DNA from: Anaerolineales bacterium
GTDB lineage: Bacteria > Chloroflexota > Anaerolineae > Anaerolineales > Villigracilaceae
DNA length: 64,000 nucleotides
NCBI GenBank assembly: GCA_036385495.1
Contig: DASVKG010000004.1
Coordinates: forward strand, 12,085-76,084
Reading direction: 5' to 3'
The notes below the pieces were generated by a model. It made no database searches, was not told the DNA's origin, and saw only the letters and a list, made by a program, of their open reading frames with translations. Made by a program: the position numbers and the translations under genes. Every line of letters begins with the position of its first letter. Positions within the stretch are counted from its first letter, which is position 1. Positions 4,536 through 30,512 of the stretch are shown here, one piece after another.

Positions 4536-5996
4536 TCACGGACCTGGCCAGCGGTACACCACCATGTTCGTCCCTCCCTGAGCCAGCGTATAGGGAGCTC
4601 CACTAGAATAAACCGGTTGGAGACCTGAAGTCAGGAGAGGATAAAAATCCGGAAAGGCAATCAGGTATTTCACTCCTTTGGAGTCCAAATAATGTGCCAA
4701 TTCGGTCTCGTTCCGAAGAAAAGGAATGACTTCCGGCGATATTAAGCCAGCCGTATCCACTAATTTATGATTTCCAAAATAACCGAGAGCACCGACATCA
4801 TGGGCAGCTAATAATGCATCATCTGGAAGATGTACTGCCACCCATTTAGCCGTGTCCACCATCTCGGATTCTATAAAGCGAACATCCTCACTATAAGATT
4901 GCATTCCCAAAAACCAGAAGCTAATACAAACCAGGATAAGAGCTATTCCCCAGGCAGTTTTGATAAACCACCATAGGCGTTCCTGCATTTTCCCATCCAG
5001 GTAATATTGATAAAATCCGATCAGCCCAATAAAGAAATAGATTGGCATCACAGGCATAAGGTAGCGGCCATGCTGGTAAGCCGGCAGACGGAGCAAGTAA
5101 ATCCCAAGATAGCCTATCACCCATAGAATCGCTGAAATATAGCCCCATTTTCTGTTCCTTATGGCCCATCGGGCAGTGATAATCACCCCCGGTAAAAGTA
5201 TGATCCCAGGACCCGTTATCATCTGCAATACCAACTCACCCAGCCGCATAAATATGGAACTTGCCTGCCAGTTAGCATATTCCGCCTGCTTGGCATAAAA
5301 TGTTGTGGGCAAAGCAGTATCGGCCAAGGCCAAATTAAACAGCAAGTAAGGAAAAAAGAAAATGCCAAACCCAAATAACGCTAAAAATATGGCGCGAGTC
5401 CTAATTTTCCAGGACGGTTGAGAAAAAAGAGCAGTGAATATTATCGGGCCAAGGAGAGTAATACCGTCAGGACGCACCCATACGCTTATGCCCGCCAAAG
5501 CACCCAACAACAACCAGTTGGAGGATTTTTTTATCAAAGATACCAACAAGATAAATGCTATCAAAGCATGTAATAACGTCTCCATCCCCGAAACTGACGC
5601 CCAGACCAAATGCCATTCTAGGGCGACCAATAATCCCACCCATGGAATAAAACCACGATACTCCTGGACCAAGTATCGCATATTTGATTCAGCGCAAACT
5701 GCCAGGCCAAAAAGTAACAGACCGCCAAGGAAGTAAGTCCAAATATAGGGGGAAACATTCAACCAGAATCCAATCGCCAGGAGGGCTGACCAAAGTGGTG
5801 CAGTGGAACCACCCGACGGTTGGCCGGGGATAAAAGACCATTCCGCGCGCAATGCCAGATTGCGAGCGAAAGTTTGATGGATCCACGAATCATCCAACGG
5901 GAATCCGATGCGATAAGAGATCGCACTGTAAGCGAGATAAGAGCAGGAACTTACAATGGCTGCAAGAACAAGAATTAGCCAGGTCCGCCAACCCAT
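4536..5996 (-). CDS. Polytopic membrane protein, GT-C-fold glycosyltransferase-like (first-loop FPLDDSWIH motif)
   Basis: About 12 predicted TM helices and an acidic DD motif in the first loop, as in ArnT/PMT-like enzymes. Start set to MGWRTW (ATG 5996), 7 nt after the upstream stop (6004-6006). The track start at 6110 would overlap the upstream gene by about 100 nt. Confidence 0.55.
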   Translation of the reverse strand: MGWRTWLILVLAAIVSSCSYLAYSAISYRIGFPLDDSWIHQTFARNLALRAEWSFIPGQPSGGSTAPLWSALLAIGFWLNVSPYIWTYFLGGLLLFGLAVCAESNMRYLVQEYRGFIPWVGLLVALEWHLVWASVSGMETLLHALIAFILLVSLIKKSSNWLLLGALAGISVWVRPDGITLLGPIIFTALFSQPSWKIRTRAIFLALFGFGIFFFPYLLFNLALADTALPTTFYAKQAEYANWQASSIFMRLGELVLQMITGPGIILLPGVIITARWAIRNRKWGYISAILWVIGYLGIYLLRLPAYQHGRYLMPVMPIYFFIGLIGFYQYYLDGKMQERLWWFIKTAWGIALILVCISFWFLGMQSYSEDVRFIESEMVDTAKWVAVHLPDDALLAAHDVGALGYFGNHKLVDTAGLISPEVIPFLRNETELAHYLDSKGVKYLIAFPDFYPLLTSGLQPVYSSGAPYTLAQGGTNMVVYRWPGP

Positions 5997-6003
5997 CAAC
6001 TTG

Positions 6004-7602
6004 CTATCTTGATGTGTTGATATGGAGAATAATGCTTTCATCAAGCGCTCCCAGGTATTTAAAGGCAGGATACTGTTCGGGATGGGTGTATAAATTTGCA
6101 AAATCTTCAAATGCCCCGTCGCGTTCCAGGACCAGATAACTTACATCGAATTTCCGTGCCACATTCAGGATCGAATTTACGTCTCCATAAGGGACAACGA
6201 CAGCCCGGCGTCCTGTCATAATAAAATAAGCCGGCGGGTTGCGCGTCATGATAATTTCATCAGGCCGGGCACCCTGCTCCACAAGAAATTGATCCACCGT
6301 GCGGTAAAGATACTCTCCTTCATTCCAACCTTTGTCGATTACACGAATCTTAACCAGCATACCGCTGAAAATAATCGCAACGACAGCAAGAGAAAACCGG
6401 AAAAGGGGTGCAATTTGAGGAAATGATTTATTGTTTTTCAGCAAGCGCACCAACAGGGCTTCAAAACCGACCGGGATTAGAGCGAACCATAACGCCTGGA
6501 ATGCCGTCCCGGCATGAAAGAATCCACCATTTACGCTGGCAAAGGGAAACAAAAGACTCTCGATTATTAACAATAGAAACCATCCGAACACTCCCACCTG
6601 AACACGAAACATGCGCCGACAACTGTAAATCCCGATCACTGCAAGGGGAAATAAAACAAGCATTCCTTGAGCAAAAATGGAGGTCAAGAAGTTCTGCAGA
6701 ATGGCTTCCCCCCGCACCTTTACCGCTACCTGCCACCCGGATGCAATCCAGGTTTGAAACGTGTAAATCTCAGGGGTGAAGGAAAAAATCTGATTGTAAC
6801 TCGTCATCCAAAGCAAATAACTGCTGCCTGGAGGTAACAATGAACCGAATACAGACAGATTTCGAATCATCCAGCCCCCCATCACGAGCAGATACCCTAA
6901 AAGACATAAAATACCGTTCCCGATAGAATTAAGGATTCGGGTCCGGACTGAAGCAGAGGGGGACTGGCGGTAGGTCATCACCAACACAACCAGAAGCGTA
7001 AGTGGCAGCCAGAGCAATCCGTCGCCACGTGCCAGGTTGAGGATACCTGCCAACAAACCAAGCACCGCCGCTTTTGGTAAAGACAATCGTTCAAGGATAA
7101 GGAAATAAATTGCGCCAATAAGCAGGTAGAGACCGTAATTATCAGTCGTGGCGACAAATGGAAGGTAATACCCGGAAAAAACTGCCAGAATGCCGGAAAG
7201 CAGCGCCAAAGGACGCCGCTTCGTAATACGGTAAGCGAGCATCATGGTAACCAATGGCGCCAGCGATGCCATTATTACAAAGCCAAGGCGCGCTGAAATA
7301 AAATTGATGGTACCGGTTAAGACCATTCCTCCAGCAGCAATAATCGAGGCCAATGGATACCAGTACGCATTAGAAGGATGGGGTAAACCCTGTGGGTGGT
7401 CCAGATAATTCCAGATAAATGGCTCCTGGAAGCCTACCCCCGCGGCCAACTGCGTACCGTCCGCATAGTAATAGGCTGCGTCCATATATCCGGGTACGGG
7501 CTGAAGTACGGCAACAGCCAGAGGGACAATTAACGCTACGATTAAAAGAACCCAGTAATCGCGACGCTTCAACACTGACTCAGGGCTGGACAATGAAAAC
7601 AT
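6004..7602 (-). CDS. Polytopic membrane protein, GT-C/PMT_2-like glycosyltransferase (paralog A)
   Basis: N-terminal loop PGYMDAAYYYADGTQL...WNYLDHPQGLPHPSNAYWYPLAS and C-terminal soluble tail NPPAYF...YLVLE. Clearly paralogous to 7580-9145. Start is uncertain: ATG 7602 or 7623, or GTG 7575 just after the upstream stop. Confidence 0.6.
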   Translation of the reverse strand: MFSLSSPESVLKRRDYWVLLIVALIVPLAVAVLQPVPGYMDAAYYYADGTQLAAGVGFQEPFIWNYLDHPQGLPHPSNAYWYPLASIIAAGGMVLTGTINFISARLGFVIMASLAPLVTMMLAYRITKRRPLALLSGILAVFSGYYLPFVATTDNYGLYLLIGAIYFLILERLSLPKAAVLGLLAGILNLARGDGLLWLPLTLLVVLVMTYRQSPSASVRTRILNSIGNGILCLLGYLLVMGGWMIRNLSVFGSLLPPGSSYLLWMTSYNQIFSFTPEIYTFQTWIASGWQVAVKVRGEAILQNFLTSIFAQGMLVLFPLAVIGIYSCRRMFRVQVGVFGWFLLLIIESLLFPFASVNGGFFHAGTAFQALWFALIPVGFEALLVRLLKNNKSFPQIAPLFRFSLAVVAIIFSGMLVKIRVIDKGWNEGEYLYRTVDQFLVEQGARPDEIIMTRNPPAYFIMTGRRAVVVPYGDVNSILNVARKFDVSYLVLERDGAFEDFANLYTHPEQYPAFKYLGALDESIILHINTSR

Positions 7603-9145
7603 GCGCCGCCTCCACCTCACCAAGATAATCCAAACCCGCCCATCCCTGTGGATTCTCGTAGACCGGTGTTAAACCGCCCGGCGTGCTCTCTTTTTCCAAA
7701 ATCAGGTATTGTGCTCCATAACGGTGTGCCACACCTAAAAGAGTTCCCAAGTCTCCATCCGGGACTGCAATCGCAGGATTTCCGGAGGCAAGATAAAACC
7801 CGGGTGGATTGGCAACCATGACGATCGAATGGTCAGTCATCCCTTCTGAAATCATAAATGTATTTATATGGTTATACGCTATATCTTCCCGTCCCCAAAG
7901 CTGGCTGCCGCCCCCGCCCATGACACGCCCGTAGATAATGACCGCCGACAGAAGGGTAACGACAACTACCAGCCCAAGCTGGAAAATTTTTCCTGACCGG
8001 ACAATATTCCAGCCGCGCATCCGGCTACCCCAGCCAATGAAGCGGTCTAGGCCCAAAGGCGCAAGTACCCACCAAACTGTCTGCACTGAGGCACCGGAGT
8101 GAAAAAAGCCGCCACGCGCCCCCGCAAATGGAAAGACCAAGGTCATGGCGGCAAGAGTTCCCAGCCAAGCAAGACCAGCCAACTGCACGCGCCGATCTTT
8201 TCGCAATTGCCAGAGACCAAGCCCAATCAGCGGGAGCAGGATTACTTCCCCCTGCACCGATAGGATATTGGAAAGGTTGAGACCCAACGCCCAAACTCGG
8301 GCTCTGAATATCGCCAAAAGACCAGACTGCCACCAGGCTGAAAACGTAATGTCACTGGCCGGGTAACCAAATAATTGGTCATATGAAGTAAGCCAAAGCA
8401 ATTTTAAGCCACCGGGAGCCAGTGGAGTGCCAAAGGCAGCGTAGTTACGGATAAACCAGGGAGTCATGACCAACAGGTAACCAGCTACGGTTAGTAACAA
8501 AAAGGTGAAAATATAATTAAAGCGGTGGTGGGAAGGTTTGGGCCAAACAATAAGAACAGCCAGAATGGCAATTAGCAACCAGAGCAAGCCATCAGCGCGA
8601 GTCAAATGCATCAGGCCAGCCAGCAAGCCGAGGAGTAAAGGGTTGAGGGGGGAGGATTTACGATTAAGGACGAGAAAAAATAAGCCTCCAAAAAGTATGT
8701 ACAAGCCGAAGGTGTCAGTAACTGGTAAAAAAGGCAGGTAAAAGGCAGGGAAAACCGCCAGCAAACCTGAGATGAGAGCCAAGTCACGGCGGGAAGAAAA
8801 GGACCACGCCAAGGCAGCAGTCAAAGGCGGGATAAGAGCAGCGACCAGAAGAAAACCGGCTCGCGCGGCGAACCAGGATGAGGGTCCGAAGAGAGCTGCA
8901 CCGGCAGCAGCGAGGAGGGATGCCATCGGCATCCAGTAGGCATGGGACGGATGAGGCAATCCGGATGGATCGTCCAGATAATTCCAAAGATAACTTTCGG
9001 TGAAGCCATGACCGTTGACTAATTGCAGGCCCCCTGCATAGTAATAGTCCGCATCCATATAACCAGGCGAAGGCTGATAGGCTGCGACAGAAGTCGCAGC
9101 AGCCAGACCCAGCAGAGCCAGGAGCAGAGTCAACCGCCATGTCAT
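7580..9145 (-). CDS. Polytopic membrane protein, GT-C/PMT_2-like glycosyltransferase (paralog B)
   Basis: PGYMDADYYYAGGLQL...WNYLDDPSGLPHPSHAYWMPMAS, matching paralog A. Start set to MTWRL (ATG 9145), which overlaps the upstream stop as ATGA. The track start at 9343 would overlap the upstream gene by 200 nt. Confidence 0.6.
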   Translation of the reverse strand: MTWRLTLLLALLGLAAATSVAAYQPSPGYMDADYYYAGGLQLVNGHGFTESYLWNYLDDPSGLPHPSHAYWMPMASLLAAAGAALFGPSSWFAARAGFLLVAALIPPLTAALAWSFSSRRDLALISGLLAVFPAFYLPFLPVTDTFGLYILFGGLFFLVLNRKSSPLNPLLLGLLAGLMHLTRADGLLWLLIAILAVLIVWPKPSHHRFNYIFTFLLLTVAGYLLVMTPWFIRNYAAFGTPLAPGGLKLLWLTSYDQLFGYPASDITFSAWWQSGLLAIFRARVWALGLNLSNILSVQGEVILLPLIGLGLWQLRKDRRVQLAGLAWLGTLAAMTLVFPFAGARGGFFHSGASVQTVWWVLAPLGLDRFIGWGSRMRGWNIVRSGKIFQLGLVVVVTLLSAVIIYGRVMGGGGSQLWGREDIAYNHINTFMISEGMTDHSIVMVANPPGFYLASGNPAIAVPDGDLGTLLGVAHRYGAQYLILEKESTPGGLTPVYENPQGWAGLDYLGEVEAAHVFIVQP

Positions 9146-10383
9146 GGGAGAGTATCGCTCCAGATGCGCGGAGGACGAACAGCCCACCAGCGCATCCAAT
9201 AAAGACCCACCACGAGCAAAACGGGGAATCCAAGCACCAGCACATCGGAAAGGGCTGCAAAGGAACCAGCAAGGAACAAGCTGGCAGTGATAAGCCAAAA
9301 CCCTAATATGATAATTATGAGAGCAAATCCCGCTAAACTCCAACGGCCAGAGCGGGACCAGCGTTCAGCCAAAATGGACAGGAAAAGAATCAGGGGGAAG
9401 AACAGCAACGCGTAGGTTTGGAGAATGACCGGGATACCCAAGAGCGGTGTGACCGCAAGAGTCATACTGGAAGTCCATAGAAAGTGACGAAAATCCTTGT
9501 GACGAACATCACGCCACTCGATGAAAAGAACCACAAACAAGAGGCCGGTCAACGCCCAGCCAAGGCGGGGACCCACCACCGGCCACCAGGACGCAAAAAT
9601 GCCACCAGGTGTAAGGGCTGGTTGGAATTTTATATGGGAAATCAATCCACCAATGAATGGTATAAACCAGTTTGATAAAATGAAGAACGATACAGCCAGA
9701 AGAATAGTGATGGTCATCAGAAAACCTGCAACAATACGACCGCGATGATGATAGACGGCCCACCAAATGATAATAAGTACCAGGAGAACAGAAACATCCA
9801 GCTGGAAAAATGGAACTACCAACAAAGCCCCAGCAAACTCGTCGCGCCCATCACGAATTGCGATCAAGAGAGCGACAATAGCCAGAGCGGAAAATATGAC
9901 CGCATTACCGCTTACCAAAGGGAGGAGCCCATAGACCCATAGTATCGAAAAGGTCAGCAATAACCACAATATGGCACGGGGCGGTTTCCAGCCGGTCAAC
10001 CTCAGGGAATAGATTGCCAAGGCAACCAGCGCAATTTCGAGGCAGGTCATCCAAAGACCCCGGGCGAGGGCATAATCCGAAACCAAGGCAAAGGGAAAAT
10101 AGATTAGTTCGACCGGGAAGGGGACGCTCAGCCGAAGCGGGTCCTGACCTGTGGTGGCAAGGCGACCATAATAGAGTACCTGGGCGCGCTGTGCAGCAGG
10201 TTCGCTGTAGGGACTATTGCCATACTGAAGCAAGGTGCCCGCCGCCAACCAAGGGACGAAAAAATCCTTCTCGCCAAGGTGAAGTCGGGCATAACGCGTG
10301 TTGGCCCAAGACAAACCGCCAATGATAGCGAGGACGAGGAATATGAGTGTGATCGTGGTGATGATATTGAGGGTGCGGGACAT
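9142..10383 (-). CDS. Polytopic membrane protein, DUF2029/GT87-like glycosyltransferase candidate
   Basis: 413 aa with more than 10 TM helices. It is the first gene of the four-gene membrane operon. The family call is from general resemblance only. Confidence 0.45.
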   Translation of the reverse strand: MSRTLNIITTITLIFLVLAIIGGLSWANTRYARLHLGEKDFFVPWLAAGTLLQYGNSPYSEPAAQRAQVLYYGRLATTGQDPLRLSVPFPVELIYFPFALVSDYALARGLWMTCLEIALVALAIYSLRLTGWKPPRAILWLLLTFSILWVYGLLPLVSGNAVIFSALAIVALLIAIRDGRDEFAGALLVVPFFQLDVSVLLVLIIIWWAVYHHRGRIVAGFLMTITILLAVSFFILSNWFIPFIGGLISHIKFQPALTPGGIFASWWPVVGPRLGWALTGLLFVVLFIEWRDVRHKDFRHFLWTSSMTLAVTPLLGIPVILQTYALLFFPLILFLSILAERWSRSGRWSLAGFALIIIILGFWLITASLFLAGSFAALSDVLVLGFPVLLVVGLYWMRWWAVRPPRIWSDTLP

Positions 10384-10664: not shown

Positions 10665-10978
10665 CGTTTAAAGATTGGAGACCTTACACACACCACACCA
10701 ATCCAGGACACAAAATTATCATGGACCATTCCCTCTCTTCCGACTCTTATTGCAGAAGGTTGGATTAAAGGTGCAAAAAAAGGAGAAACCGGAGAAATGG
10801 AATTCAGATTTCTGAATTATTCATCAACAGCCCTTGGTTATTCTTGAAGTCCAAGCAAGTGCGAGCCATAAGACCAGTCTTCCAAAAGAATATAATTACG
10901 GAGTATTTTGTTATTTTTAATTACACGTTTCAACCTTCGGATCAGTTTATGCTATAATACCGCCCATCTGAGGCAAGA

Positions 10979-11059
10979 ATGACTATTATTCGCTTCGCCA
11001 CCAATAATAACAATAACGATAATCGGCCTCCGGCCGCTGGGCGAAGCTTGCCAGGATAG
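10979..11059 (+). CDS. Leader peptide MTIIRFATNNNNNDNRPPAAGRSLPG (26 aa)
   Basis: ATG lies 5 nt after GAGG. Codons 9-15 are AAT AAT AAC AAT AAC GAT AAT (11003-11023). The TAG stop at 11057-11059 lies 10 nt after segment 2. Confidence 0.65.
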   Translation: MTIIRFATNNNNNDNRPPAAGRSLPG

Positions 11060-11079
11060 AGAACTCTCGATCCTTCCTT

Positions 11080-11113
11080 ATCGCCCAACGCAATCGCGGA
11101 GGGCGATTTTTAT
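11080..11113 (+). terminator. Attenuator terminator (copy A)
   Basis: TCGCCC..CGC / GCG..GGGCGA stem (6+3 bp with a 2x2 internal loop and AATC loop), followed by TTTTTATT. asnA SD and ATG follow within 30 nt. Confidence 0.7.
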
Positions 11114-11140
11114 TACCCATATTCCAAAAAAGGAGACCCA

Positions 11141-12178
11141 ATGAAAAAACTACTTATTCCATCCGATTACGAACCGCACCTTGATGTGAAACAAACGGAA
11201 CAAGCCATCAAGTTGATCAAGGATTTCTTTGAAGTCAACCTGGCCGCAGAACTACGATTGAGCCGAGTGACCGCACCTTTGTTCGTCCTGCGAGGGACCG
11301 GTATCAACGACGATCTGAACGGAGTCGAAAAACCGGTCTCCTTCCCCATCGTCGATATCAAAGGACAGACAGCCGAGATCGTCCAATCCCTCGCCAAGTG
11401 GAAGCGAATGATGCTGGCTGACTACGGCATCCAGCACGGATACGGTCTCTACACTGATATGAATGCCATCCGCCCGAGTGAAAATCTGGATAACCTTCAT
11501 TCAATTTACGTAGATCAATGGGACTGGGAAAGGGTTATCAGCCCTGGAGAAAGAACCATCTCGTTTTTGGAAGAAATCGTGCGTAAGATTTACGCGGTCA
11601 TCAAACGCACTGAATTCCATCTTTCAGATCATTACATGTTCATCAAGCCTGAATTGCCGGATGAGATCACGTTTATCCACTCGGAGGACCTGCAACGAAA
11701 ATACCCCGATCTGACTCCCAGACAGCGTGAGGAAGAAATCGTCCGCCAACATCGAGCCGTGTTTATCATCGGAATCGGTGCCGCCCTGGCTGATGGAATC
11801 CCTCATGACGGCAGGGCACCTGACTATGACGATTGGATCACAGAAACTAAAAATGGTTTGCGAGGTCTAAACGGCGATATTATCATATGGAACAATGTGC
11901 TGAATTGTTCCTATGAGCTTTCATCCATGGGAATACGCGTAGATGGGGAAGCATTGCTACGGCAATTGGAGGTTACCGGAACCATGGAACGAAAGGAGTT
12001 GCTTTTTCACCGCCGTCTGCTAAACAACGAACTACCACTTTCGATCGGCGGCGGGGTTGGTCAATCGCGGCTGTGCATGTATTTCCTTCGAAAGGCCCAT
12101 ATCGGTGAGGTCCAAGTGGGCATCTGGCCCGCAGAGATGATGGAAGAATGCCGAGCAAACAACATTTTCCTTTTGTAA
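11141..12178 (+). CDS. asnA: Aspartate--ammonia ligase (asparagine synthetase A)
   Basis: 345 aa with AsnA hallmarks: VDQWDWERVI, SSMGIRVD, GGGVGQSRLCMYFL. SD AAGGAGA lies upstream of the ATG. Confidence 0.9.
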   Translation: MKKLLIPSDYEPHLDVKQTEQAIKLIKDFFEVNLAAELRLSRVTAPLFVLRGTGINDDLNGVEKPVSFPIVDIKGQTAEIVQSLAKWKRMMLADYGIQHGYGLYTDMNAIRPSENLDNLHSIYVDQWDWERVISPGERTISFLEEIVRKIYAVIKRTEFHLSDHYMFIKPELPDEITFIHSEDLQRKYPDLTPRQREEEIVRQHRAVFIIGIGAALADGIPHDGRAPDYDDWITETKNGLRGLNGDIIIWNNVLNCSYELSSMGIRVDGEALLRQLEVTGTMERKELLFHRRLLNNELPLSIGGGVGQSRLCMYFLRKAHIGEVQVGIWPAEMMEECRANNIFLL

Positions 12179-12223
12179 ACCTGTAGATAATATGTGCTAT
12201 AATACCGCCAACCTGAGGCAAGA

Positions 12224-12304
12224 ATGATAGCAATCCGCTTCGCCAACAATATTAACGATAAGGATAATCGGCCTCCGGCGGTTGGGCGAAGCTTGCAAGG
12301 ATAA
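12224..12304 (+). CDS. Leader peptide MIAIRFANNINDKDNRPPAVGRSLQG (26 aa)
   Basis: Same length and frame logic as copy A. Codons 8-15 are AAC AAT ATT AAC GAT AAG GAT AAT (12245-12268). TAA stop at 12302-12304. Confidence 0.65.
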   Translation: MIAIRFANNINDKDNRPPAVGRSLQG

Positions 12305-12326
12305 GGACCATTCGGAAACCTACTCG

Positions 12327-12360
12327 TCGCCCAACGCCATTGCGGAGGGCGATTTGTTTT
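12327..12360 (+). terminator. Attenuator terminator (copy B)
   Basis: Same stem as copy A with a different loop (CATT), followed by TTTGTTTT. aspS SD GGAGG follows at 12367-12371. Confidence 0.7.
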
Positions 12361-12376
12361 GTAATTGGAGGCTTTC

Positions 12377-14143
12377 ATGTATAAAACTCATACTTGCGGC
12401 GAACTACGCGCCAGCCACGCCGGGCAGACCGTCACCGTGGCTGGATGGGTGCACAACTTCCGCACGTTTGGCGGAGTAGTCTTTTTGGTATTACGCGATC
12501 GTTTTGGCATCACCCAAATTGTTACCAACCCGGATAAATTCCCAGAAGCGGCCAAAGCAATTGAGGGGTTGAAAAACGAATGGGTTGTGCAGGTTGCCGG
12601 CAGCGTACGGATGCGCCCGTCGGACCAGTTTAACCCAAAGATGCCCACCGGTGAAATCGAGGTGGAGGCGCATGAAGTGACTGTTTTGAATGAGGCTAAA
12701 ACCCTGCCATTCGTAGTCAGCCGGGATGACGAGGAAATCGACGAGAACCTGAGGCTTAAATACCGCTACCTTGACTTAAGGCGTGAACGCATGAAGCGCA
12801 ACCTCATCCTTCGCCACGAGGTGGTGTTGTTCATGCGAAAGTATTTATCGGAACGCGGATTCATCGAGGTGGAGACACCCATGATGTTCAAGACCACTCC
12901 AGAGGGAGCGCGCGACTATCTTGTACCGTCGCGTGTCTACCCCGGGCAGTTCTACGCATTACCTCAAAGCCCCCAGCAACTTAAGCAACTATTGATGGTG
13001 GCAGGGATCGAGCGATATTTCCAAATCGCGCGCTGCTTCCGTGACGAAGACTCACGTGGAGACCGCCAACCTGAATTCACGCAACTCGACCTGGAAATGT
13101 CGTTCGTCCATCGCGATGATGTTCTAAATATGGTGGAAGGTTTGATCACCGCCATGCTTCCAGAAGTGGCTCCACAAAAGAAATTTTTGGCCTCGCCCTG
13201 GCCTCGCCTGACTTACAATGAGTCCGTGGAACGTTTTGGCACCGATAAACCCGACCTGCGCTTTGGAATGGAGCTTTATAACGCCAATGCTATCTTTGGG
13301 AAAAGCGAATTCGTCGTTTTCATTTCAGCACTGGAAACCGGCTGTATCATTAAATGCATTGTGGCTCCAAGCTGTGCAGGGTATACTCGCAAGCAACTCG
13401 ACGACCTGACGACGGCTGCCAAAGAACTGGGGGCAAAGGGACTGATAACTCTAGCGTTGACGACTGAGGGTGCGAAGGGGTCCGGAGCCAAATTTATCAG
13501 CGAGAAAGAAATCTCAGCCTTGACCCGATTAACCGGTGCAACCACCGGAGACCTGATCCTGTTCATCGCAGACAGCCCAAAGATAGTCCACAAAGTGCTA
13601 GGTGTATTGCGCAACAGGTTCCGTGACGCCCTGAAACTTGCCGATCCGGACGTGATGGCCTTTGCCTTCGTGCTGGATTTCCCGATGTTTGAGTGGAACG
13701 AAGAGTTCAAGAAATGGGACGCCTCACACCACCCATTCACCATGCCGCGCCTGGAGCACCTTGACCGGTTCGAAACTGATCCATCCACAATTCTTTCGGA
13801 GGCGTACGATATGGTCTGCAATGGCTACGAAATGGCCTCCGGATCAATCCGAATTCACCGGCGTGACATCCAGTCGAAAGTATTCAACCTGCTCGGAATA
13901 GAAGATGAGGAAGCTCAGTTCAAGTTCGGGCACATGCTGGAAGCTTTCGAGTACGGTGCACCGCCACATGGCGGGATTGCTCCCGGCATTGACCGGCTGG
14001 TAATGCTGCTGGCTGATGAACCCAACATCCGAGAAGTAATCGCCTTTCCAAAGAACCAGGCTGCCCGCGACGTGATGGCAAATGCCCCGTCATACCCGGA
14101 CGAGAGACAATTGAAGGAATTGCATCTAAAAATAACCGAGTAG
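12377..14143 (+). CDS. aspS: Aspartate--tRNA ligase (bacterial type)
   Basis: [11 protein letters not shown]... with an OB-fold N-terminus, class II motifs ([28 protein letters not shown]) and the GAD insertion. Start moved to ATG 12377, 5 nt after GGAGG; the track start at 12365 is a TTG. Confidence 0.92.
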
Positions 14144-14182
14144 GGAAAGAGGATTTCCCTCCTGCCATCCATGGAGACACAT

Positions 14183-15523
14183 ATGCCCATCATTCGCGTT
14201 GAAGAAATAGCAAAATATCCCGGCGAAGAAGTTACTGTGCAGGGCTGGGTCTACAGCCGCACTGACAAAGGGAAGCTGGTTTTCCTGCTCGTCCGGGATG
14301 GCTCAGGTTTTGTCCAGTGTGTAGCTTTCAAAGGTGACCTTCCCGAGGCAATCTTCGACCAGCTAACCCGCCTGCCGCAGGAATCCTCGGTCATTATCAG
14401 CGGACCAGTACGCGAAGACAAGCGCGCTCCCGGCATCCCCGGAGGGTACGAGATCGGCGTTAAGGAAATACAAATCATCCAGATGGCTGCCGAGGATTAT
14501 CCAATGGCGTTGAAAGAGCACGGGGTGGACTTCGCCCTAGACAACCGCCACTTGTGGATCCGCATGCCCAGCCAGTGGGCCATCCTGCGCATTCGCGGGA
14601 CGGTCATTTCGGCTATCCGTGAGTGGTTCGAACAGAACGGGTTTATCAATATGGACACGCCCATCCTGACTCCGGCAGCTGTAGAAGGCACCACTACTCT
14701 TTTCGAGACGGAATATTTCGACGAAGGTAAAGCCTACCTTAGCCAATCGGGCCAGCTTTATAACGAGGCGAATATCATGGCCTTTGGAAAGGTTTACTGC
14801 TTTGGCCCGACCTTTCGCGCCGAAAAATCCAAAACTCGCCGTCACCTGACCGAGTTTTGGATGGTCGAACCAGAGATCGCCTTCTGCGATCTGGATGGTT
14901 TAATGGAGGTGGAGGAGCAGTTCGTGACGCATATTGTCAAACGCGTCCTACGAGATCGGGGGCCTGAGTTGAAATCTCTGGGCCGTGACCTGACGAAGCT
15001 GGAAAAAATAGAGGTTCCCTTCCCGCGCATCTCCTACGACGAGGCTACCAAAGCCATCCAGGAGCTTTATGAAAAGGAAACTGACCCGGAAAAAAAAGAG
15101 ATGCTAAAATTCGAATGGGGCATGGACTTCGGGGCACCCCACGAGGCAGTCCTGACCAGCCGTTACGAGAAACCTGTCTTTGTCTACGGTTACCCTACTC
15201 AGGTGAAGGCTTTCTACATGGAACCTTGGCCAGGGCGTCCCGAGGTTTGCAAGTCAGTGGACTTGCTTGCACCGGAAGGATACGGAGAAATCATAGGTGG
15301 TTCGGAGCGCATGTCCAGTCCCGACTTGCTGCTGGAGCGCATCCACGAACACGGATTGCCGGAAGCAGCCTACAAATGGTACCTGGACCTGCGGCGTTAT
15401 GGCTCGGTCCCTCACTCCGGCTTTGGGATGGGCGTAGAGAGGACGGTAGCCTGGATCTGCGGAATCGAGCATATCCGTGAAACCATTGCCTTCCCGCGCA
15501 TGATCAAGAGAGTCTATCCGTAA
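14183..15523 (+). CDS. asnS: Asparagine--tRNA ligase
   Basis: AsnRS signature [21 protein letters not shown] and GGSERM...SGFGMGVER. Start set to ATG 14183 (GGAGA 6 nt upstream) rather than 14171. Confidence 0.9.
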
Positions 15524-15734
15524 TATTGTCGGGGATCTGCGGTATTTAAACCACTCTCTGAACTAATCCACCCATTATTTCATCCCAAAGGTGTTTCCAT
15601 AAGAACCTTAATCTTTCCCTACACACCCCTCTTACTTTATGGTATAAAACATCTACCCTGCTGTGCTCGCGATGTTGCACCTCCGTTCTGAGCCAACACC
15701 CACAAAAAGGGGTCCAATCTCGCGACAAGGATGC

Positions 15735-16229
15735 GATAGGCTTCGGCCAAGGCTGACTTGCCGGGTAGAACCCCGACCTGCGAAAGCAGGTTCAGAACCT
15801 TGCAGCACACGGCATTAGCGGGGTTATCTTATACAACCGAATACGGAGAACCAGCGACTGGCTCCCGGGAGAACCGGGAGTACGAGGTGGAGGTTCCTCT
15901 GCGCAAGCGGAGGTTAAGACCCTTACTCCAGCCCCTTTCCTATATAGAGGATAAGGGTTGAGGTTGAAGGTCGAAAATCGGATAGATCAGCGGATGCCTC
16001 CGGAGCCTGACCACGGGTTCCCTTCTCCCTTCCAGAAAAAGCGCACAGCAACGAACAGGTTTAAAAAAACTGTGTTTGTTGTCCAGTCCCAAAACTGACC
16101 GGTGACGGTCAGGACAAAGGATAGCCGCAGTGGTCCAGGCAGAAAACCAGCCTGCGTAAACATGGAAGGGCTGCCAGCCGGAAATTTTGTGGTACCAGAG
16201 GCATGCCCCTCAGGCATGCCTTTTTATTT
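15735..16229 (+). ncRNA. Large structured RNA with glmS-ribozyme-like core motifs (candidate; the 5' boundary is uncertain)
   Basis: No credible ORF. Hairpins capped by tetraloops that read as such only on the + strand: UUCG 15739-15748, GAAA 15776-15791, GAGAA 15862-15880, GCAA 15896-15913, GUGA 16095-16112. More hairpins at 15933-15957 and 16049-16081. Motifs AGCGAC, ACGAGG-U-GGAGGUU, GUCGAAAAUCGG, GCGGAUGCCUCCGG and GGACAAAGG occur in the order I remember for the glmS ribozyme. The element ends at an intrinsic terminator. Confidence 0.5.
16199..16229 (+). terminator. Intrinsic terminator closing the structured RNA
   Basis: AGGCATGCC / GGCATGCCT 9-bp stem with a CCTCA loop, followed by TTTTATTT. 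Confidence 0.75.
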
Positions 16230-16468: not shown

Positions 16469-17806
16469 ATGGAACCCAAAGAATTAATTGCTCGTGTTAA
16501 ATCGGATAATGTCAAATTTATTTCCTACCAGTTCACCGACGTAACTGGCGCAGTTAAAAGTGTGGACGCCCCCATTAAGCAATTGGAGTCCACATTGGAA
16601 GATGGCGTCTGGTTTGACGGTTCATCGGTGGAAGGCTTCGCCCGGATACAAGAAAGCGACATGCGCCTGGTAATTGATCCGGATACCTATGCTGTCCTCC
16701 CCTGGAGTCCAGTCGAGGCGCGCCGGGCGCGCGTCTTCTGCGATATTTTTACCCCCGATGGACAACCCTTTGATGGTGACCCGCGAGGGGCACTCAAACG
16801 CATTCTTTCCAAAATAACGGAAAGGGGCTGGACCTATAACGTGGGGCCCGAACCTGAATTTTTCCTTTTCCGCCGCAACGGTGGAGAGGCCATCCACCCC
16901 GTGCCGCACGATGTAGGTAGTTACTTCGACTTCTCCGCTGACGATGAGGCTGTGCGGGTCCGCACTGAATTAATGGATGCGCTTAACAGTATGGGATTGG
17001 ATGTGGAAGTGGGGCATCACGAAGTGGCCATCGGTCAACATGAAATTGACTTCCGGTTCGCTGATGCTTTACGGACAGCCGACAACGTGTTGACCCTAAA
17101 ATACACTGTCAAAGCAATCGCCGCCAAACACGACCTGATCGCATCGTTCATGCCCAAACCCGTTTTCGGGATCAATGGTTCCGGCATGCACTGTCACCAA
17201 TCCATTTTTGACAAAAAGGGTAATAACCTGTTCTATGATGCCAAAGATGAATATCACCTTTCCCCCATGGCTTACGGGTTCATAGCCGGTCAATTAAAAC
17301 ATGCCCGCGCCCTGGCAGCAATCGTCGCACCAACTGTAAATTCGTACAAACGTCTGGTCCCGGGGTACGAAGCTCCGGTTTACATCGGCTGGGCGCAGAT
17401 AAACCGCTCTGCGCTGATCCGGATCCCCCGTTTCACCGAAGGCCGCATCAAAGCGATGCGAGCCGAACTGCGCTTCCCCGACCCGTCTGCCAATCCATAC
17501 CTGGCTTTCGCCGCTATCCTGGCTGCAGCGATGGATGGGGTTGACAATAAACTAACACCCCCCGCCCCGCTTAACAATATTAACGTATATCACCTAGATG
17601 AGGCAGAACGCGCCAAACTAGGTATTGCCTCCCTGCCCGGTTCCCTAGCCGAAGCCCTGGATGAATTAGAAAAAGACAAAGTAGTTCGCTCGGCATTGGG
17701 CGAGAACATTTACGATGCTTTCACTCGTGCCAAGCGGGATGAGTGGGATGCCTTCCGAATTAATGTGACTGACTGGGAAGTGAAACAATATCTTGAAACA
17801 GCATAG
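16469..17806 (+). CDS. glnA: Glutamine synthetase, type I
   Basis: 445 aa. Beta-grasp N-domain (FTDVTGAVKSV, DGSSVEGF) and catalytic-domain motifs (FMPKPVFGINGSGMHCHQS, NSYKRLVPGYEAP, NRSALIRIP). SD GAGAGGAAA upstream. Confidence 0.92.
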   Translation: MEPKELIARVKSDNVKFISYQFTDVTGAVKSVDAPIKQLESTLEDGVWFDGSSVEGFARIQESDMRLVIDPDTYAVLPWSPVEARRARVFCDIFTPDGQPFDGDPRGALKRILSKITERGWTYNVGPEPEFFLFRRNGGEAIHPVPHDVGSYFDFSADDEAVRVRTELMDALNSMGLDVEVGHHEVAIGQHEIDFRFADALRTADNVLTLKYTVKAIAAKHDLIASFMPKPVFGINGSGMHCHQSIFDKKGNNLFYDAKDEYHLSPMAYGFIAGQLKHARALAAIVAPTVNSYKRLVPGYEAPVYIGWAQINRSALIRIPRFTEGRIKAMRAELRFPDPSANPYLAFAAILAAAMDGVDNKLTPPAPLNNINVYHLDEAERAKLGIASLPGSLAEALDELEKDKVVRSALGENIYDAFTRAKRDEWDAFRINVTDWEVKQYLETA

Positions 17807-26552: not shown

Positions 26553-28442
26553 ATGCACGTCATCGGTACTGCCGGGCACGTGGACCACGGAAAATCCACC
26601 CTCATCGCCGCGCTAACCGGCATTCACCCCGATCGTCTTAAAGAAGAACAAGAACGGGAAATGACCATAGACCTCGGTTTTGCCTGGTTGACTTTACCAG
26701 ATGGCGAGGAAATTGGTATCGTGGACGTACCTGGTCACCGTGATTTCATTGAGAACATGCTTGCAGGTGTGGGTGGCATAGACGCGACCCTTCTGGTTAT
26801 CGCCGCTGACGAGGGAATCATGCCCCAGACGCGTGAGCACCTTGCCATCCTCGACCTGCTTCAAATTCAGGCAGGCATAATTGTGCTTTCCAAGATAGAC
26901 CTTGTGGATGACCCCGAATGGCTGGATTTGATGGAGGTGGATATACGCAATGCCTTGCGCGGTACCGTGTTGCATAACGCTCCCATCCAGCGGGTTTCCT
27001 CGGTCACCCATGCCGGTTTTCCGGAGCTTCTACAAGCGCTTGGTCTACTCCTGGAAAAAACGCCAACCCGCCCCAACTACGGCCGACCGCGGTTGCCTGT
27101 GGATCGGGTCTTCTCCATCGCCGGGTTCGGAACGGTCGTCACCGGCACACTATCGGACGGGAACCTTACCACAGGAGAAGAAGTGGAAATCCTGCCATCC
27201 GGTTATCGAGGCCGAATACGCGGCCTCCAGACGCATAAAAAGAAAGAGGACATAGCGGTCCCCGGGAGCCGCACTGCAGTAAACATTACTGGCCTGGATG
27301 TGCAACAAATCCAACGTGGCGAGCTGGTGACACATCCCGGTCAGTACAAGTCTTCCCAGCGCCTCGACCTCAGCTTTCGCCTGCTCCCAGACGTGTCCGC
27401 TCCATTGCGTCATCACACCGAAGTCAAACTTTATATCGGAACATCAGAGACCCTTGGAGACGTGCGCCTATTGGGCGCAGAAATCCTTTCCCCCGGCGAA
27501 ACCGGCTGGCTGCAACTTGACCTGCGCATGCCTGTTGTGGCTGCGCGTGGCGACCGGTTCATTCTGCGACGCCCGTCCCCCAGCGAAACCCTCGGCGGCG
27601 GCACGGTAGTGGACCCACAACCAACTCGACGGCATAAACGGTTCGACAAGAATATACTTCAGGGGCTTGTGACCATGGCACAAGGGTCGCCCGCTGAAAT
27701 TATATTGCAAGCGAGTCTCGCACTAGGTCCGGCTCCGGTCAAGGATGTAACTGCCCATTCCCGACTGGAAGTCCGCGCAGCCGAATCAGCGATTAACGCC
27801 CTCCTTGATACCAATCAGCTAGTCAAGTTGGACGATGGACCTTGGACGAGCGACAGCGTGGTGCTTGCTAGTTCGCAGTGGACCGAACTCAAGAATATTA
27901 TTGTAGAGGCTTTAGGTACTTATCATGGTGTCTATCCACTGCGAAAGGGCATGCCTCGCGAGGAGCTGAAGAGCCGGTTGAAACTGGCACCCCGCCCCTT
28001 CAACCTGATCCTAACAAAATTGGCCTCGGAGGGAGTCCTGAGGGAGGGTCCTAAATGGGCATCCCTCCCGGAACACACGGTCCGATTTTCCCCATTCCAG
28101 CAAGTGAAAGTTGATAAGTTATTGGAGCTGTTTTCAGCAGCACCAAACACCCCGCCTTCGGTGAAAGAGTGCCAGGCTGAAGTCGGTGAAGACGTATTCA
28201 GCACCCTCCGAGAGTCGGGCGATCTAGTCGCCGTCTCTGAGGAGATAGTCCTCCAGAAACGGGTTTATGAGGACATGGTGGAGAAAATCCGCCAAGCACT
28301 CATTCAAAATAAACAGGTTACCCTCGCTGAAGCACGTGATCTGCTCAATACCACCCGGAAATACGTGCAAGCACTTATGGAGCATCTGGACGCGATTGGC
28401 ATGACTGTGCGAGATGGAGACTACCGGCGCCTAAGATCTTAG
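26553..28442 (+). CDS. selB: Selenocysteine-specific translation elongation factor
   Basis: GTPase motifs GHVDHGKST, DVPGH and SKID. EF-Tu-like domains II and III, then a long C-terminal winged-helix extension. Length of 629 aa is typical of bacterial SelB. Confidence 0.85.
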   Translation: MHVIGTAGHVDHGKSTLIAALTGIHPDRLKEEQEREMTIDLGFAWLTLPDGEEIGIVDVPGHRDFIENMLAGVGGIDATLLVIAADEGIMPQTREHLAILDLLQIQAGIIVLSKIDLVDDPEWLDLMEVDIRNALRGTVLHNAPIQRVSSVTHAGFPELLQALGLLLEKTPTRPNYGRPRLPVDRVFSIAGFGTVVTGTLSDGNLTTGEEVEILPSGYRGRIRGLQTHKKKEDIAVPGSRTAVNITGLDVQQIQRGELVTHPGQYKSSQRLDLSFRLLPDVSAPLRHHTEVKLYIGTSETLGDVRLLGAEILSPGETGWLQLDLRMPVVAARGDRFILRRPSPSETLGGGTVVDPQPTRRHKRFDKNILQGLVTMAQGSPAEIILQASLALGPAPVKDVTAHSRLEVRAAESAINALLDTNQLVKLDDGPWTSDSVVLASSQWTELKNIIVEALGTYHGVYPLRKGMPREELKSRLKLAPRPFNLILTKLASEGVLREGPKWASLPEHTVRFSPFQQVKVDKLLELFSAAPNTPPSVKECQAEVGEDVFSTLRESGDLVAVSEEIVLQKRVYEDMVEKIRQALIQNKQVTLAEARDLLNTTRKYVQALMEHLDAIGMTVRDGDYRRLRS

Positions 28443-30437: not shown

Positions 30438-30511
30438 GGGCGCGTAGCTCAGCCGGTTAGAGCGCATCACTCACATTGATGAGGTCGGGGGTTCGAGCCC
30501 CTCCGCGCCCA
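30438..30511 (+). tRNA. tRNA-Val (anticodon CAC)
   Basis: Cloverleaf folded by hand: acceptor GGGCGCG/CGCGCCC, D stem GCTC/GAGC, anticodon stem CATCA/TGATG with loop CTCACAT, T loop TTCGAGC. CCA is not encoded. Confidence 0.9.
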
Positions 30512-30512
30512 C

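Follow-up and report, generated by a model that had tools for sequence, protein, structure and literature searches.

A conserved leader-peptide element with a mixed Asn/Asp codon run upstream of aspS-asnS in Anaerolineales, a probable transcription attenuator

The DNA analyzed in this work, hereafter the window, is a stretch of 64,000 nucleotides from an Anaerolineales bacterium that carries the genes asnA, aspS, asnS and glnA, whose identities were assigned with NCBIfam equivalog models. Two copies of a short element, a putative attenuator, lie in front of asnA (copy A) and in front of aspS (copy B). The genes and the parts of copy A are:

10950-11115, plus strand: copy A of the putative attenuator, with the same layout as copy B
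10979-11059, plus strand: leader ORF A, peptide MTIIRFATNNNNNDNRPPAAGRSLPG
10992-10999, 11036-11047, 11081-11091 and 11096-11106, plus strand: segments 1 to 4 of copy A
11107-11115, plus strand: U-tract of copy A
11141-12178, plus strand: asnA, aspartate--ammonia ligase, downstream of copy A (TIGR00669, 388 bits)
12377-14143, plus strand: aspS, aspartate--tRNA ligase, with the SD sequence GGAGG at 12367-12371 and the ATG at 12377 (NCBIfam NF001750, 821 bits)
14171-15523, plus strand: asnS, asparagine--tRNA ligase, 27 nt past aspS (NCBIfam NF003037, 539 bits)
15652-15828, plus strand: 6S (SsrS) RNA gene, between asnS and glnA (Rfam)
16469-17806: glnA (NCBIfam equivalog model)

No terminator was predicted in the gap between aspS and asnS. 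Some 130 nt, in which no terminator was predicted, separate the 6S RNA gene from the end of asnS, and a 6S RNA gene also follows the aspS operon in the related contigs L138 (6772-6948), L139 (7167-7343) and L118 (4374-4555). In other parts of the window, the minus strand carries four consecutive large ORFs (4536-10383; 524, 539, 587 and 413 amino acids) with no Pfam match, the last two of which (587 and 413 amino acids) have no NCBIfam match either; the gene for the selenocysteine-specific elongation factor SelB is located on the plus strand at 26553-28442, and a tRNA-Val(CAC) gene at 30438-30512.

A sequence check placed the whole of copy B at 12195-12362, with its terminator ending 14 nt upstream of aspS. 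It includes the following features:

12195-12203, plus strand: extended -10 promoter box TGCTATAAT, identical in 40 of 40 leaders
12215-12218, plus strand: SD sequence GAGG of the leader ORF, 5 nt upstream of the ATG and nearly invariant in the leader alignment
12224-12304, plus strand: leader ORF B, 26 codons and TAA, peptide MIAIRFANNINDKDNRPPAVGRSLQG, with orthologous ORFs in 29 distinct aspS leaders
12237-12247, plus strand: segment 1 (GCTTCGCCAAC), one strand of the protector helix, the other being segment 2 (minimum free energy (MFE) fold; 92-93% of cells paired in 43 sequences)
12245-12268, plus strand: putative regulatory codons AAC AAT ATT AAC GAT AAG GAT AAT (4 Asn, 2 Asp), kept by codon identity and not by nucleotide
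12267-12277, plus strand: accessory segment X (ATCGGCCTCCG), complementary to segment 4 (stall-masked MFE; tentative)
12281-12292, plus strand: segment 2 (GTTGGGCGAAGC), partner of segment 1 or segment 3 (MFE, energies and pairing in the alignment)
12302-12304, plus strand: TAA stop codon of leader ORF B, 10 nt past segment 2
12327-12337, plus strand: segment 3 (TCGCCCAACGC), which contributes the 3' strand of the antiterminator and the 5' strand of the terminator (pairing of 96% with segment 2 and of 99.7% with segment 4)
12342-12352, plus strand: segment 4 (GCGGAGGGCGA), which with the interrupted U-tract TTTGTTTTGT makes up the predicted intrinsic terminator (12342-12362)
12353-12362, plus strand: U-tract TTTGTTTTGT, interrupted, of the UUU-R-UUUU type

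The original prediction for this region had described copy B as a repetition of copy A, with the same promoter box, SD sequence, 26-codon ORF and four segments; this agrees with the sequence check and with the 82% identity of both copies over the aligned stretch, in which the likeness starts abruptly at TGCTATAAT. The run of four Asn and two Asp codons was also found as predicted, at 12245-12268, and it begins (12245) within the 3' end of segment 1 (12237-12247). The pairing of segments 2 and 3, claimed to be perfect over 9 bp, is so, given that the core of segment 2, GTTGGGCGA (12281-12289), is the exact reverse complement of the core of segment 3, TCGCCCAAC (12327-12335). The terminator (12327-12362) is formed by the stem TCGCCC..GGGCGA and TTTGTTTTGT; the stem has a predicted energy of -17.6 kcal/mol and is followed by UUUGUUUUGU, that is, a GC-rich stem with a U-tract. 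A simple terminator scan listed the hairpin of copy A and did not list that of copy B, in which the U-tract is interrupted.

In the public assembly examined, gene callers annotated no small ORF between asnA and aspS. When all six frames of the 64-kb window were scanned for small ORFs with a run rich in N and D, three matches were obtained, of which two are leaders A and B; because of this proportion, and because the element recurs in related contigs, the leaders exceed what is expected by chance.

The distribution of the element was analyzed with nhmmer, using the two copies of the window as seed to search contigs related to it. This search gave 50 instances, and four more were found in further assemblies (54 in total), all of them upstream of asnA or aspS; the short leader ORF, with its own SD sequence and start codon, is present in all orthologs. 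A metagenome scan with AspS gave 57 loci (47-93% identity), many of which keep the order asnA-aspS-asnS, and the AspS homologues that bear names are labelled Anaerolineaceae, Anaerolineae or Anaerolineales. The best match of AsnA among GTDB genomes (77%) is encoded by an Anaerolineales MAG (L001), where the gene is preceded by an orthologous leader; seven Asn codons follow one another in this leader (MSIIFFANNNNNNNV...), and its terminator is perfect. This was the only leader among the 80 AsnA loci of the GTDB scan, which are mostly from Bacteroidota, and therefore asnA is not generally accompanied by the leader. Eight of the other 79 loci have a short AAY run and no comparable ORF; L074 has a short YNNN ORF without the leader, and L032 an unrelated Asn-rich small ORF. 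The leader was likewise not found in six AspS relatives at about 72% identity (L109, L110, L113, L116, L117 and L121), and an Rfam scan of these six loci and L118 gave no T-box.

The MFE structure of each of the two copies in the window consists of a 1:2 helix that encloses the codon run and a 3:4 hairpin before the U-tract. When compared with shuffled sequences, the energy of copy A has a z-score of -4.27, and that of copy B, with z = -1.45, is not unusual. The four-segment architecture is kept in 42 of 42 leaders, and in all 42 the protector, antiterminator and terminator helices can be formed, with mean energies of -18.1, -20.8 and -17.9 kcal/mol, respectively. In an alignment of 43 sequences, 96.3% of the cells of the 2:3 helix are paired, and 95.6% of those of 1:2 plus 3:4; if the partner is slid by one to three columns, pairing falls to 27-48%. 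Helix 2:3 has two double-sided compensatory changes, from G-C to A-U in L088 and from U-A to A-U in L089, a number that was matched by 7 of 500 shuffles. Covariation in 1:2 plus 3:4 of the same alignment was no better than in shuffles, and it is scant because the helices are almost invariant; RNAalifold recovered only the terminator from the 43 sequences. Therefore, the structural argument rests on conservation, on the energies and on the two compensatory changes of helix 2:3.

Folding of copy B with the nucleotides occupied by a ribosome masked gave the 1:2 helix and the terminator when no ribosome was present, the 2:3 antiterminator when the ribosome was stalled at the start of the run, and the terminator when it was at the stop codon. 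Across the leaders, the mask at the stop codon gave the terminator in 41 of 42; at equilibrium, the stall mask gave the antiterminator in 24 of 42, copy B included, while the terminator was still preferred in the other 18, copy A of the window among them. The switch would therefore have to rely on the order in which the segments are transcribed, as occurs in classical attenuators. The pairing between ATCGGCCTCCG (12267-12277) and segment 4 may tentatively represent a second layer of antitermination; 75% of its cells are paired across leaders, with no compensation.

The codon run and the RNA segments show opposite patterns of conservation. The original prediction depended on the codon run being conserved in orthologous leaders, and the run is indeed kept at the same place in leaders of both classes (29 distinct ones before aspS, 13 before asnA). 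Across leaders, AAT and AAC replace each other freely; the runs of the aspS leaders add up to 139 Asn codons (97 AAT, 42 AAC), 70 Asp codons (56 GAT, 14 GAC) and a single Ser codon, and other residues are rare. Given this synonymous interchange within a reading frame that is kept, selection in the run is on the translated product and not on the RNA sequence. In contrast, the four RNA segments are nearly invariant, third codon positions included, and the nucleotides that link the stop codon to segment 3 vary freely. In L115 the nucleotides of segment 2 are conserved even though they are read in another frame (RWAKPC), which points to a constraint at the RNA level.

The codon content and the terminator differ between the two classes of leaders. 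The mean number of codons per leader is 4.8 for Asn and 2.3 for Asp in the 29 distinct aspS leaders, and 5.9 and 1.1, respectively, in the 13 distinct asnA leaders; the ratio D/(N+D) is 0.33 versus 0.14 (Mann-Whitney p = 7e-5, in a test that ignores phylogeny). The codon mix of copy B had been said to match the Asp- and Asn-tRNA ligases encoded downstream, and this is in line with the NCBIfam identities of aspS and asnS and with the richer Asp content of the aspS leaders. The purest Asn runs (7-9 Asn, 0 Asp) occur only before asnA, which is metabolically sensible because AsnA consumes aspartate. The U-tract is of the UUU-R-UUUU type in 29 of 30 aspS leaders and consists of 4-8 uninterrupted U in 12 of 12 asnA leaders; from the interruption we infer that the terminator of the essential synthetase operon is leakier. 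The aspS leaders of different genomes are more similar to each other (0.84-0.99) than to the asnA leader of their own genome (0.64-0.90), therefore the duplication is old and both copies have been maintained.

Asn-tRNA(Asn) can be produced by an indirect route, which uses AspRS and the amidotransferase GatCAB, or by a direct route that uses AspRS and AsnRS. The original prediction had named gatCAB among the genes that might carry the same leader, and the mixed Asn/Asp leader was in fact found upstream of aspS-gatC-gatA-gatB in five relatives (L101, L104, L106, L107 and L115), where GatA matches TIGR00132 with about 600 bits and GatB was identified too. The presence of the leader before aspS-gatCAB gives independent support to the Asn codons being functional, and it appears from these gene orders that the leader accompanies whichever machinery supplies Asp-tRNA and Asn-tRNA.

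Regarding the origin of the direct route, the nearest AsnA proteins outside the leader-bearing clade (loci L002-L080) belong to Bacteroidota, with 60-68% identity; an exact-sequence look-up of the AsnA protein of the window found no record. The Dehalococcoides genomes available to an earlier survey lack AsnRS (PMC2494555). This absence and the Bacteroidota-like AsnA hint that the Asn genes of the direct route could have been acquired horizontally.

The promoter of copy B had been predicted to overlap the end of asnA. This is not the case for the -10 box, which lies 17 nt past the stop codon of asnA (12176-12178), and would be true only for a hypothetical -35 box; the sole candidate that overlaps the stop codon, TTGTAA, is poor and has a spacer of 19 nt. 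Among 40 leaders no conserved -35 box was found, and the sequence upstream of the -10 is not conserved. The promoter region (12190-12212 and 10945-10967 in the window) thus has an invariant extended -10 (TTTRTGCTATAAT) and no conserved -35. Downstream of the -10 there is a GC-rich stretch, ACCGCC(AAC), which is conserved, is similar to segment 1 and has the look of a stringent-type discriminator. As for the proposal that asnA and aspS-asnS are separately attenuated units, each has its own leader; nevertheless, no terminator was predicted between asnA and leader B, and therefore transcripts reading through from asnA would also meet attenuator B.

The element has every defining feature of leader-peptide attenuators that can be recognized in a sequence, and it lies outside all curated sequence families. 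On these grounds we consider, with a probability of roughly 80%, that copy B is a ribosome-mediated leader-peptide transcription attenuator that senses charged tRNA-Asn and tRNA-Asp and sets the read-through into aspS-asnS. According to this model, transcription would start a few nucleotides past the extended -10 box, and the 26-codon leader would be translated while the RNA polymerase advances. When Asn-tRNA and Asp-tRNA are plentiful, the ribosome would reach the stop codon (12302-12304) and sit on the 3' part of segment 2; with segment 2 covered, segments 3 and 4 would pair, and the hairpin and the U-tract would end the transcript 14 nt before aspS. If there is no ribosome at all, 1:2 and 3:4 would form and transcription would terminate too. 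When either charged tRNA is scarce, the ribosome would stall in the run (12245-12268), directly past segment 1, either covering segment 1 or sitting between segments 1 and 2; segment 2 would then form the 9-bp helix with segment 3 before segment 4 has been transcribed, no terminator would form, and aspS-asnS would be transcribed. Copy A, in which the Asn run is purer and the U-tract stronger, would act in the same way on asnA. Whereas the anatomy and the conservation of the element, the codon content of each class and the operons in which it occurs are direct observations, the coupling of transcription and translation, the stalling and the actual termination are what we infer from them; we know of no study of transcription-translation coupling in Chloroflexota. 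The distance from the terminator to the aspS start codon ranges from 13 to 216 nt across leaders, given that relatives carry variable inverted-repeat inserts in this interval, and this favors a transcriptional mechanism over a translational one based on sequestration of the ribosome binding site.

Other explanations can be weighed against this model. An unlikely one is that the leader senses Asn only, the Asp codons being tolerated neighbours (AAY to GAY is one transition) that were left from the duplication and have no regulatory meaning. Several asnA leaders do share the run NNNNDNDN with aspS leaders, the two leader peptides of L103 differ at one residue, Asn codons exceed Asp codons in every class, and the enrichment in Asp was evaluated with a test that ignores phylogeny; however, at least one Asp codon is present in 29 of 29 distinct aspS leaders, the Asp share of the two classes differs as described above, and Ser, whose codons can also be reached from those of Asn by one transition, is 70 times less frequent than Asp in the runs (1 versus 70 codons). 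The restriction of the pure Asn runs to asnA leaders also argues against this explanation and fits the consumption of Asp by AsnA. We see little chance that the conserved tail of the peptide (DNRPPAVGRS) is an arrest peptide which senses, for instance, EF-P activity or a small molecule, with the Asn/Asp run in a secondary role. Pro-Pro motifs are generally known to slow ribosomes, and NRPPAVGRSL is conserved in most leaders, but this tail coincides with segments X and 2, whose invariant third codon positions indicate that the constraint is on the RNA; moreover, RLN, RLK or DPSRS replace RPP in several leaders, and L115 reads segment 2 in its other frame.

The hairpin and the U-tract might instead terminate asnA constitutively or insulate it, and the small ORF would be incidental or act in translation only. 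Since no other terminator lies between asnA and aspS, the hairpin could end the asnA transcripts; yet the element, with its own -10, SD sequence and ORF, precedes aspS in loci without asnA upstream (L092-L101, L104-L107, L114, L115 and L139) and precedes asnA itself, and the codon run and the three mutually exclusive helices are conserved; we find this explanation hard to credit. Finally, it would be most surprising if the element were a T-box-like, tRNA-binding RNA or a metabolite riboswitch instead of a ribosome sensor, even though aspS and asnS are regulated by T-boxes in some Firmicutes and T-boxes occur in some Chloroflexi (PMC2494555). The element has only about 140 nt, and its AAY/GAY run, which is conserved in frame and varies synonymously, makes sense only if it is translated. 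The search of Rfam 15, T-box included, gave no match at the gathering score, and at E <= 10 only chance-level hits of unrelated families in the region 10700-12500, none of them on the leader; the T-box covariance model (RF00230) and the amino-acid leader families (His, Leu, Thr, Trp and others) gave no match, and a scan of 16 related loci revealed no T-box or any other family beyond 6S RNA.

Leader-peptide attenuation is textbook knowledge for Trp, His, Phe, Leu, Thr and Ile/Val in Proteobacteria, and it is known for a few operons in Actinobacteria and Bacteroidota. In E. coli, the pheS-pheT operon (pheM) has the same arrangement as proposed here, i.e. a leader-peptide attenuator before a synthetase operon, with a run of cognate codons, alternative hairpins and an intrinsic terminator. 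In that case the amino acid is Phe, whereas the element described here would respond to Asn and Asp, belongs to a different phylum and has no sequence relationship to it, as judged by the lack of a match to the Rfam leaders; in addition, it precedes two synthetase genes, or those of a synthetase and GatCAB, and a paralogous copy precedes the biosynthetic gene asnA. Mixed codon runs and the classical 1:2, 2:3, 3:4 logic are shared with the E. coli leaders of thr (Thr and Ile) and ilvGMEDA (Leu, Val and Ile), in which limitation of any one of the amino acids relieves termination. Those leaders control biosynthetic operons of Proteobacteria; in contrast, in the element of this work the Asn:Asp mix differs between the two paralogous leaders of one genome according to the gene controlled. 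The T-boxes of aspS and asnS in Firmicutes serve the same purpose, given that they provide more synthetase in response to the uncharged cognate tRNA by means of antitermination (PMC2494555). Nonetheless, T-boxes bind the uncharged tRNA directly and without translation, whereas the element analyzed here has no T-box features and is proposed to use the translating ribosome as sensor.

In full-text literature searches and Rfam 15, we found no Asn/Asp leader peptide and no leader-peptide attenuation at aspS, asnS, asnA or gatCAB or in Chloroflexota, and a prior mention in an attenuation survey of 2010 is possible; this work (Lopatovskaya et al., Mol Biol 44:128) reportedly surveyed the attenuation of amino-acid and aminoacyl-tRNA operons. 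The regulatory element is real and conserved, the reading of it in the original prediction is supported, and the mechanism proposed is a classical one; we did not find its specificity (Asn and Asp), its targets (AspRS/AsnRS, AspRS/GatCAB and AsnA) or its phylum described. If the proposed mechanism is correct, it adds a new amino-acid specificity to this class of attenuators, shows how bacteria without a T-box at these genes couple the levels of synthetase and amidotransferase to tRNA charging, and flags small ORFs that are missed by gene callers; it would also provide a natural pair of paralogous attenuators, with codon mix and terminator strength fitting their targets, as a compact system to test how the composition of a leader determines its input logic. 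A broader proposal, to which we give an even chance, is that of a lineage-wide, two-input (Asn and Asp), ribosome-sensed regulon in Anaerolineae. One ancestral leader would have been duplicated, with the Asn:Asp ratio and the strength of the U-tract tuned for each target (near-pure Asn and a strong terminator for asnA, mixed codons and a leaky terminator for aspS), and the leader would have been retained while the route to Asn-tRNA (aspS-gatCAB versus aspS-asnS) differs by lineage. Were this regulon to exist, the sensor would predate the pathway under its control and be more stable than it, and the amidotransferase GatCAB would for the first time be seen under leader-peptide control.

Some leaders and their surroundings depart from the common pattern. 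The inserts between the terminator and aspS are variable inverted repeats of about 100-200 nt, present in L081 (2375-2500), L084, L087, L089, L107, L103 and L106; they are of the type CACAAAG/CACGAAGG...CTTTGTG/CCTTCGTG, MITE- or REP-like, and absent from the window. In L084 (1819-2199), a truncated copy of the leader and only the last ~70 codons of asnA are found upstream of an intact aspS leader, as a deletion remnant. The asnA leader of L095 and L096 (991-1156 and 550-715, respectively) has lost the Asn run (MTIICFTNLPKYLNYHPLIFGRSLQG) and kept the RNA segments and the terminator; it may be a decaying copy or one that terminates constitutively. L118 (2330-2500) carries a distant aspS (68% identity) preceded by a different small ORF (..TSATDNNPEAQ..) with a strong GC hairpin and a U-tract; this upstream region gave no match to the leader model. 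In L032 (3800-3995), from an Aminicenantes MAG, a TTGACA/TATAAT promoter is followed by the Asn-rich small ORF, which ends in ...VIKNNKNNNWVVTATQ, and about 60 nt upstream of asnA there is a hairpin, UGGGUGG..CCACCCA, with no clear U-tract; this small ORF and the hairpin may constitute an unrelated Asn-sensing leader.
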